Shown piece by piece: positions 5,911 to 7,256 of a DNA stretch of 64,000 nucleotides. The stretch's first letter is position 1; each line of letters starts with the position of its first letter. Below the pieces are notes generated by a model. It worked only from the letters and a program-made list of their open reading frames with translations, made no database searches and was not told where the DNA came from. The translations under genes and the position numbers were made by a program. The DNA comes from Escherichia coli (GTDB lineage Bacteria; Pseudomonadota; Gammaproteobacteria; Enterobacterales; Enterobacteriaceae), in NCBI RefSeq assembly GCF_044324875.1, contig NZ_CP172185.1. The stretch is one strand, 5' to 3'.

Positions 5911-6822
5911 GTGAGTACATTAGAACAAACAATTGGCAATACGCCTCTGGTGAAGTTGCAGCGAATGGGGCCGAATAACGGCAGTGAAGTCTGGTTGAAA
6001 CTGGAAGGCAATAACCCGGCAGGTTCGGTAAAAGATCGTGCGGCACTTTCGATGATCGTCGAGGCGGAAAAGCGCGGGGAAATTAAACCGGGTGACGTGC
6101 TGATCGAAGCCACCAGTGGTAACACCGGCATTGCGCTGGCAATGATTGCCGCGCTTAAAGGCTATCGCATGAAATTGCTGATGCCCGACAACATGAGCCA
6201 GGAACGTCGTGCGGCGATGCTGGCATACGGTGCGGAACTGATTCTTGTCACCAAAGAGCAGGGCATGGAAGGTGCGCGCGATCTGGCGCTGGAGATGGCG
6301 AATCGTGGTGAAGGAAAGCTGCTCGATCAGTTCAATAATCCCGATAACCCTTACGCCCATTACACCACCACCGGGCCGGAAATCTGGCAGCAAACCGGCG
6401 GGCGCATTACCCATTTTGTCTCCAGCATGGGAACAACCGGCACTATCACCGGCGTTTCACGCTTTATGCGCGAGCAATCCAAACCGGTGACGATTGTCGG
6501 CTTACAGCCGGAAGAGGGCAGTAGCATTCCCGGCATTCGCCGCTGGCCTGCGGAATATCTGCCGGGGATTTTCAACGCTTCGCTGGTGGATGAGGTGCTG
6601 GATATTCATCAGCGAGAAGCGGAAAACACCATGCGCGAACTGGCAGTGCGGGAAGGAATATTCTGTGGCGTCAGCTCCGGCGGCGCGGTTGCTGGAGCAC
6701 TGCGGGTGGCAAAAGCTAACCCTGGTGCGGTGGTGGTAGCGATCATCTGCGATCGTGGCGATCGCTACCTTTCCACCGGGGTGTTTGGGGAAGAGCATTT
6801 TAGTCAGGGGGCGGGGATTTAA
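5911..6822 (+). CDS. cysM: Cysteine synthase B (O-acetylserine sulfhydrylase B) CysM
   Basis: 303 aa from the GTG at 5911 (VSTLEQTIGNTPLVKL...); PLP-enzyme motifs present. The ORF-track start at 5833 runs through the REP element, so the GTG start is preferred. Confidence 0.9.
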   Translation: MSTLEQTIGNTPLVKLQRMGPNNGSEVWLKLEGNNPAGSVKDRAALSMIVEAEKRGEIKPGDVLIEATSGNTGIALAMIAALKGYRMKLLMPDNMSQERRAAMLAYGAELILVTKEQGMEGARDLALEMANRGEGKLLDQFNNPDNPYAHYTTTGPEIWQQTGGRITHFVSSMGTTGTITGVSRFMREQSKPVTIVGLQPEEGSSIPGIRRWPAEYLPGIFNASLVDEVLDIHQREAENTMRELAVREGIFCGVSSGGAVAGALRVAKANPGAVVVAIICDRGDRYLSTGVFGEEHFSQGAGI

Positions 6823-6824
6823 GA

Positions 6825-7256
<432 letters not shown>

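Follow-up and report, generated by a model that had tools for sequence, protein, structure and literature searches.

An old presence/absence polymorphism of yfeS, probably exchanged by homologous recombination, at a small cargo site between cysM and yfeK in Escherichia coli

The DNA analysed here, referred to as the window, is a 64-kb stretch (64,000 nt) of Escherichia coli contig NZ_CP172185.1, in which cysM and yfeK are convergent genes with almost nothing between them (Table 1). Both stop codons lie where the first-pass annotation of this DNA had placed them, 2 nt apart, and the C-terminus that it had written for YfeK is correct; positions 6820–6828 read TAAGATTAT. According to the ORF list, the GTG at 5911 is the equivalent of the K-12 start of cysM, and the gene is 95% identical at the nucleotide level to cysM of MG1655 (b2421). 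In RefSeq, the match is annotated as cysM in thousands of genomes, and the YfeK annotation is likewise present among the matches. YfeK is a DUF5329 protein (Pfam PF17263; E = 1.7e-31, 108.8 bits, exceeding the gathering score cut-off of 27), with a signal-peptide-like N-terminus and Ala-Lys at the likely cleavage site. No trace of yfeS was recovered from the 64-kb window by tblastn and blastn, nor does the window contain a YfeS-like ORF with a WGR domain (PF05406). An Rfam scan of the junction returned only REP-derived matches, located away from the junction itself. The REP element upstream of cysM is of one class with the two REPs that the yfeS cassette of K-12 (described below) has in its tail, and a second REP-like match to that tail was observed at positions 31754–31788 of the window.

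Table 1. Features of the cysM/yfeK locus, numbered from the first position of the window
Feature	Coordinates	Strand	Description and basis
REP element upstream of cysM	5855–5890		Partial Rfam naRNA4 (REP-derived) match; outside the indel
cysM (cysteine synthase B)	5911–6822	+	303 aa, GTG start, TAA stop 6820–6822; ORF list
Gap (GA) between convergent stops	6823–6824		2 nt; yfeS site, empty form
Breakpoint zone relative to K-12	6823–6832		Pairwise BLAST of window and MG1655, junction print-outs
yfeK	6825–7193	-	122 aa, GTG start, stop 6825–6827, C-terminus ...TDKTVPAQ-stop; ORF list
Inverted repeat, left arm ATTGCGCAG	6827–6835		Spans the allele-specific yfeK tail
Inverted repeat, right arm CTGCGCAAT	6852–6860		In yfeK codons Ile-Ala-Gln
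Sigma-E-type promoter-like site upstream of yfeK	7227–7254	-	GAAACTT, 16 nt, TCAAA; sequence match
pdxK, core gene flanking on the yfeK side	7298–8149	+	ORF list, RefSeq annotation

The corresponding region of K-12 MG1655 has the order pdxK, yfeK (b2419, 124 aa), yfeS (b2420, 244 aa) and cysM (b2421), and 955 bp separate the yfeK and cysM stops. The first-pass annotation was right that K-12 has a gene of roughly 240 aa between yfeK and cysM: the gene is yfeS, which encodes a WGR-domain protein and is annotated as a "PF05406 family protein", and MG1655, when checked, does not share the abutting arrangement of the window. The two loci agree in their flanking genes and in the convergent orientation of these, with 95–96% flank identity, but K-12 carries 958 extra bases in the pairwise BLAST alignment, and its YfeK ends in AEGN-stop (...TVPAEGN-stop) and starts with ATG, whereas YfeK of the window ends in AQ-stop (...TVPAQ-stop) and starts with GTG. 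Alignment of K-12 to the window stops after position 6827, with the break falling a few bases beyond the cysM stop and the restart lying within the final yfeK codons.

The additional segment in K-12, here termed the yfeS cassette, sits between the stop codons of two protein-coding genes and is 958 bp long and promoter-less. It consists of a 32-bp spacer with an AGGAGG ribosome-binding site ahead of the yfeS ATG, yfeS itself (735 bp, 39% GC, GC3 37%), and a 188-bp tail containing two inverted REP elements. The GC content of the cassette is 40.5%, compared with 49% for the window (about 49–51% for the genome). Repeats flanking yfeS in positive strains, which the first-pass annotation had suggested looking for, are present in the form of an 8-bp direct repeat, ATTAATCC, that brackets the cassette at both ends; the left copy includes the yfeK stop codon, and the right copy adjoins the cysM stop codon. 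This motif occurs exactly twice per occupied locus, at the cassette ends, in all five occupied alleles compared (K-12, BL21, EC26, the Escherichia fragment NZ_CP098226.1, and a contig from a Pseudocitrobacter MAG, L013). The cassette thereby shares with IS or transposon insertions a direct repeat of the target-site-duplication type, but differs from them in that the 958 bp contain neither a transposase nor terminal inverted repeats (the sole ORF is yfeS), and in that no copies were found elsewhere in E. coli genomes, except of the REP tail, which finds matches in more than 40 places in each E. coli genome and also matches REP-derived families of Rfam. Visual comparison shows that the two ends of the cassette (GCTTTGGG... 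and ...CCGATGCT) are not complementary to one another. Nor does the cassette look like an integrase-borne genomic island, for which an integrase gene and a tRNA or att target would be expected: an annotation check of the cassette and neighbouring genes identified no integrase.

We determined the distribution of both alleles across 5,426 complete RefSeq E. coli genomes. The flanks were detected in 5,425 of these, and together in one place in 5,371. The yfeS segment (presence defined as at least 80% coverage) was found in 1,381 of the 5,426 genomes (25%). As had been proposed, yfeS is therefore accessory in E. coli, and present in only part of the species. Records of the segment comprised 1,223 with at least 99% identity to K-12 and 183 in the 95–99% band, within which the BL21-AI allele falls (95.3%). 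Consistent with these counts, a synthetic empty-junction query was contiguous in at least 3,814 genomes (70%) and split in approximately 1,390. Empty (window, NY1601, AZ159) and occupied (K-12, BL21, MIN14) states are alike flanked by cysM and yfeK/pdxK. Base-level inspection identified the exact window junction (GGGATTTAAGATTATTGCGCAGGCACC) in strains NY1601, 472, AZ159, BH100 and E302, and with nearby single-base changes in WR14-2, while the empty genome FCI29 has one additional C and hence a 3-nt gap; RefSeq annotation of the inspected empty genomes shows cysM and yfeK abutting.

The window carries the majority, empty allele of E. coli, and the abutting arrangement is not peculiar to this genome. 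That the junction could be an assembly or sequencing artefact is exceedingly improbable: nothing was found to support this reading, and it is refuted by the census, the identical arrangement being annotated in thousands of independent complete genomes. It is the K-12 map that represents the minority state at the cysM/yfeK locus, with a K-12 "y-gene" that is optional and absent in about three quarters of complete E. coli genomes, and annotation transfer from K-12 should not presume yfeS. As a gene-content polymorphism the difference is ordinary and already annotated.

A query representing the precise-deletion allele, in which the K-12 flanks are joined via a single copy of ATTAATCC, had no exact match in the 5,426 genomes, and its best full-length match (96.1%) was the ordinary empty allele. 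The clean presence/absence difference envisaged by the first-pass annotation holds as far as absence is concerned; the difference is not entirely clean, since the yfeK tails differ (PAQ-stop versus PAEGN-stop) and the product of a precise deletion between the repeats occurs in no E. coli. Among the genomes inspected, yfeK is annotated as a frameshifted pseudogene in strains 472 (L005 724–1091) and BH100 (L007 726–1095), and the junction span of an O157:H7 genome is one base below usual. Insertion sequences have broken yfeS in strains EC26 (ISEc22 of the IS66 family, L002 7137–9473) and LR-03 (IS1).

Divergence was also recorded along the surrounding region. Compared with strain XJ6.1, the window is 1.4%–4.7% diverged over positions 2000–7500 (cysP to yfeK), and 0–1.3% per kb over positions 8000–28000 (about 0.5% overall). 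For positions 6300–7350, the closest complete E. coli genome is 97.4% identical, and divergence between E. coli strains is 4%–8% in yfeK and the cysM 3' end. The cysP–yfeK region is locally hyper-diverse and probably a recombination mosaic.

The 9-bp inverted repeat that had been pointed out in the yfeK 3' end is perfect, with a 16-nt loop. Its left arm shares one base with the yfeK stop, and both arms contain the palindromic hexamer TGCGCA, supplied by Ala-Gln codons. The repeat is exclusive to the empty allele and shrinks to 5 bp in K-12, because the left arm spans the allele-variable part of yfeK. Its predicted fold (−16.4 kcal/mol) has a z-score of −1.5 versus shuffles, which is not significant. 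Within cysM, only 60 bp from it, there is another inverted repeat, of 10 bp and likewise perfect, and 46 perfect 9-mer inverted-repeat seeds with loops of 3–20 nt occur in the window, compared with about 5 in shuffles. Rho-independent terminators have a G+C-rich stem, a short loop and a T-run, but the loop here is 16 nt, neither strand has a T-run after it, and the terminator scan called no intrinsic terminator at the repeat. Judged by these properties, the repeat is within what chance gives and is no terminator; it has no sign of function and lends no weight to the interpretation.

We assessed the state of the site in other taxa using a scan for YfeK relatives with one genome per species, which yielded 22 loci that were typed by tblastn and by eye; this set of species representatives returned no E. 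fergusonii, Salmonella or standard E. coli type strain. Near-abutting genes with the AQ-stop junction of the window type were found in a divergent Escherichia (L010) and in Pseudocitrobacter faecalis. Convergent yfeK and cysM also nearly abut in an Enterobacteriaceae MAG (8 nt), Citrobacter amalonaticus (38 nt), Superficieibacter sp. (39 nt) and Entomohabitans (85 nt), and are convergent and overlapping in Escherichia sp. E1V33. The divergent Escherichia (NZ_JAATUR010000016.1, strain SCPM-O-B-8794) was deposited as E. coli; its cysM and yfeK are 86%–93% identical to those of the other E. coli sampled, and, being about as distant as E. albertii, it is probably a different Escherichia species.

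Further species carry unrelated cargo at the same site. In E. albertii this is 1.84 kb long with 34.5% GC (L012 4376–6197), and contains two ORFs of 280 aa and 175 aa, the latter with a lipoprotein-like N-terminus. The cargo of C. sedlakii spans 3.8 kb with two large ORFs, one of which has weak TPR matches, and that of Superficieibacter electus includes a 140-aa ORF. Neither E. albertii ORF matched a Pfam or NCBIfam family above threshold, and across the E. albertii and C. sedlakii cargo proteins these databases gave only weak TPR and DKNYY matches. Apart from a 40-bp match, the E. albertii cargo is absent from the 5,426 E. coli genomes. In each case, divergence starts directly past the cysM stop and inside the last few yfeK codons. 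The cysM/yfeK site behaves as a small cargo hotspot.

The E. coli pan-genome includes "islets", where alternative accessory genes lie between the same core genes and are exchanged via flanking homology, and core-flanked integration hotspots were reportedly exemplified in E. coli comparative genomics by Touchon and colleagues in 2009. The cysM/yfeK site resembles such hotspots in being empty, or occupied by yfeS or other cargo, between fixed core flanks, and in its low-GC cargo, absence of mobility genes and locally raised nucleotide diversity. It is unlike typical hotspots in being very small, with one promoter-less gene placed exactly between the stops and the promoter of the upstream gene seemingly reused, and in that both alleles are common to more than one genus.

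The occupied allele is also found beyond E. coli. At the identical site, the Pseudocitrobacter MAG contig carries yfeS with the AEGN-stop tail, the ATTAATCC repeats and the REP tail of K-12. Between K-12 and this contig, yfeS is 95.9% identical in nucleotide sequence (92% at third codon positions), compared with 80.5% for yfeK (59%) and 89.6% for cysM (73%). The excess similarity is limited to the yfeS ORF, and flank identity stays at the inter-genus baseline up to the junction, for yfeS+ and yfeS− E. coli partners alike. Given that the similarity of yfeS is far above that of its flanks, the gene has moved between the Escherichia and Pseudocitrobacter lineages far later than these lineages split. 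A chimeric contig is unlikely, because its flanks are approximately 91% identical to P. faecalis, and its yfeS and tail are unlike those of any E. coli allele examined. Divergence is 2.7% between the two yfeS alleles of E. coli, and only 4%–4.6% between these and the Pseudocitrobacter allele.

Evidence from a second genus comprises this single metagenome-assembled contig and one 1.1-kb SRA contig (L042). The latter is enterobacterial and has yfeK, a yfeS homologue and cysM in the K-12 order, but its homologue is diverged (65% amino acid identity, 38.5% GC), with different junctions and no REPs. In a neighbour-joining tree (without support values), the L042 protein is sister to the clade of K-12, BL21 and Pseudocitrobacter. 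The nearest homologues beyond the family are 55%–58% identical and occur in Paenibacillus, Dysgonomonas, Lysinibacillus and Clostridium; the gene context of a Fusobacterium homologue was uninformative.

Searches for YfeS gave no notable match in phages, and the sole apparent E. coli match in plasmids was NZ_CP098226.1, a sequence of 50 kb submitted as an E. coli plasmid. This sequence is collinear with the K-12 pts-cys region at 94.9% identity, and preserves the order ptsI-crr-pdxK-yfeK-yfeS-cysM-cysA over positions 1–9067. Its yfeS is approximately 94%–95% identical, having diverged as much as its flanks. The record resembles a piece of chromosome from a divergent Escherichia more than a plasmid, and it was rejected as a plasmid vehicle for yfeS based on its collinearity with the chromosomal pts-cys region. 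Contigs P0003 and P0004 were rejected as new genera; these are alleles of E. coli or Escherichia that have frameshifts or internal deletions.

Empty and occupied junctions thus recur unchanged in Pseudocitrobacter and divergent Escherichia, and the earlier proposal that yfeS is an insertion in K-12 is not supported. As both alleles are present in these taxa, and a diverged (65%) yfeS occupies the same site, the polymorphism predates E. coli or is at least of equal age, and it crosses genus lines. Allele sharing between Escherichia and Pseudocitrobacter provides a small example of gene-content polymorphism extending over genus boundaries.

Sequence runs that could serve in such exchange are present at the site. 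Exact runs of 20–84 nt common to both genera adjoin the junction on both sides, and runs of this size are long enough for RecA-dependent crossovers. K-12 and P. faecalis agree in all of the last 84 nt of yfeK that precede the variable tail (L001 3618–3701 versus L014), whereas the rest of yfeK is 71%–92% identical, which points to recent recombination between the genera, in a tract that ends at the junction.

In the explanation that we consider most probable (roughly 80%), the small cargo site has long been polymorphic for the presence or absence of yfeS, and its alleles are exchanged by homologous recombination in the flanks. The 2-nt junction would then be the empty allele between two convergent core genes. 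Each allele arose once, because one junction sequence is seen wherever it is found, and empty and occupied alleles would pass between strains, and at times genera, via the conserved 3' ends of cysM and yfeK. Homologous recombination would move whole alleles, with no self-encoded mobility function, and yfeS would ride on the sigma-E promoter of yfeK. The founding event may have been an insertion with target duplication, as the 8-bp repeat suggests, into an ancestor with the empty site ...AATTAATCCTTAA. Several observations sit less comfortably with exchange by homologous recombination. No co-transfer of the flanks is detectable between yfeS+ genomes of the two genera, which would be explained equally well by site-specific insertion; the 8-bp repeat resembles a target-site duplication, and simple homologous recombination gives no reason to expect one in the founding event; and the GC3 of yfeS (37%) has not ameliorated, a poor fit to long enterobacterial residence.

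Alternatively, yfeS could be ancestral to E. coli and have been deleted in the window lineage and most other strains, with the abutting stops as the scar. Enterobacterial yfeS genes do form one clade and are always located between yfeK and cysM, the yfeS of the divergent Escherichia fragment has diverged to the same extent as its flanks, as would fit vertical descent within the genus, and the two E. coli alleles differ by the 2.7% given above. However, we regard ancestral loss as improbable. A single junction is shared by every empty genome sampled, including P. faecalis and the divergent Escherichia, and recurrent independent deletions are therefore excluded; recombination between the 8-bp repeats would give a different product, which is absent from all 5,426 genomes, and no yfeS remnant remains in the window. 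At most one ancient deletion could be accommodated, its product having spread as an allele, at which point this account merges with the exchanged polymorphism favoured above.

The structure of the cassette ends bears on another alternative, namely a single transposition-like or site-directed insertion of yfeS that duplicated 8 bp (ATTAATCC), with the empty form as the untouched ancestral site, and with sequence recognition bringing yfeS to the same site in different genera. This is unlikely in our view, even though two copies of the repeat mark the ends of each occupied locus in five independent alleles, the empty site (AATAATC(C)) is near the repeat in sequence, in most outgroups the site is empty or the genes nearly abut, the GC content of the cassette is low, and no flanks were co-transferred between genera. 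The cassette has none of the features expected of such an element (terminal inverted repeats, transposase, integrase, or other copies except the REP tail), and the change in the yfeK tail exceeds a duplication, as GAAGGA replaces C. Moreover, the diverged L042 allele occupies the same site with other junctions and no such repeat, and the unrelated cargo of other species lies there without the ATTAATCC motif. It is very improbable that a factor acting in trans inserts the occupied cassette, as a non-autonomous mobile unit, at this specific site between the cysM and yfeK stops. One candidate for such a factor would be a REP-associated tyrosine transposase acting on the REP-doublet tail of the ATTAATCC-bounded cassette, and, if true, trans-acting insertion would explain why the cassette has one and the same position in both genera although its flanks were not transferred along with it.

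The choice of allele alters the YfeK C-terminus, and may also bear on transcription. The promoter-like site upstream of yfeK was recognised by its match to the sigma-E consensus, and the core of the motif is unchanged in K-12; yfeS, where present, would be transcribed from it as well. In the empty allele, transcripts of sigma-E-driven yfeK and of cysPUWAM would converge with no terminator between them, making antisense effects conceivable. Published work places the yfeK promoter within the sigma-E promoter set (PMC3326320), and reports that yfeK and yfeS are co-induced with rpoE, and that growth arrest results from over-expressed yfeK and not from yfeS (PMC2685091). The literature on yfeS is thin, although the Keio yfeS deletion is sensitive to boric acid, in a study whose authors state a yfeK-yfeS operon structure (PMC11502571).

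The K-12 YfeS protein has a WGR match (65 bits) at residues 1–71, by sequence and predicted fold, and a C-terminal domain that is predicted to be helical, with no convincing structural match. It shares the WGR domain with other members of PF05406, including PARP1/2/3 and Bacteroides fragilis Q64V53 (PDB 2ra8), but differs from the PARP proteins in being without the catalytic PARP domain. Our best guess is that YfeS binds nucleic acids in the cytoplasm, is non-essential and belongs to the envelope-stress regulon.

The polymorphism matters little to biology at large, and its mild interest lies in the cross-genus alleles at a tiny cargo hotspot. One further difference was observed at the other end of yfeK, where the gene starts with GTG in the window and in all sampled Escherichia with the empty allele, but with ATG in yfeS+ K-12 and BL21. 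This start-codon difference (window 7191–7193; L001 3343) is linked to the junction at a distance of approximately 370 bp.
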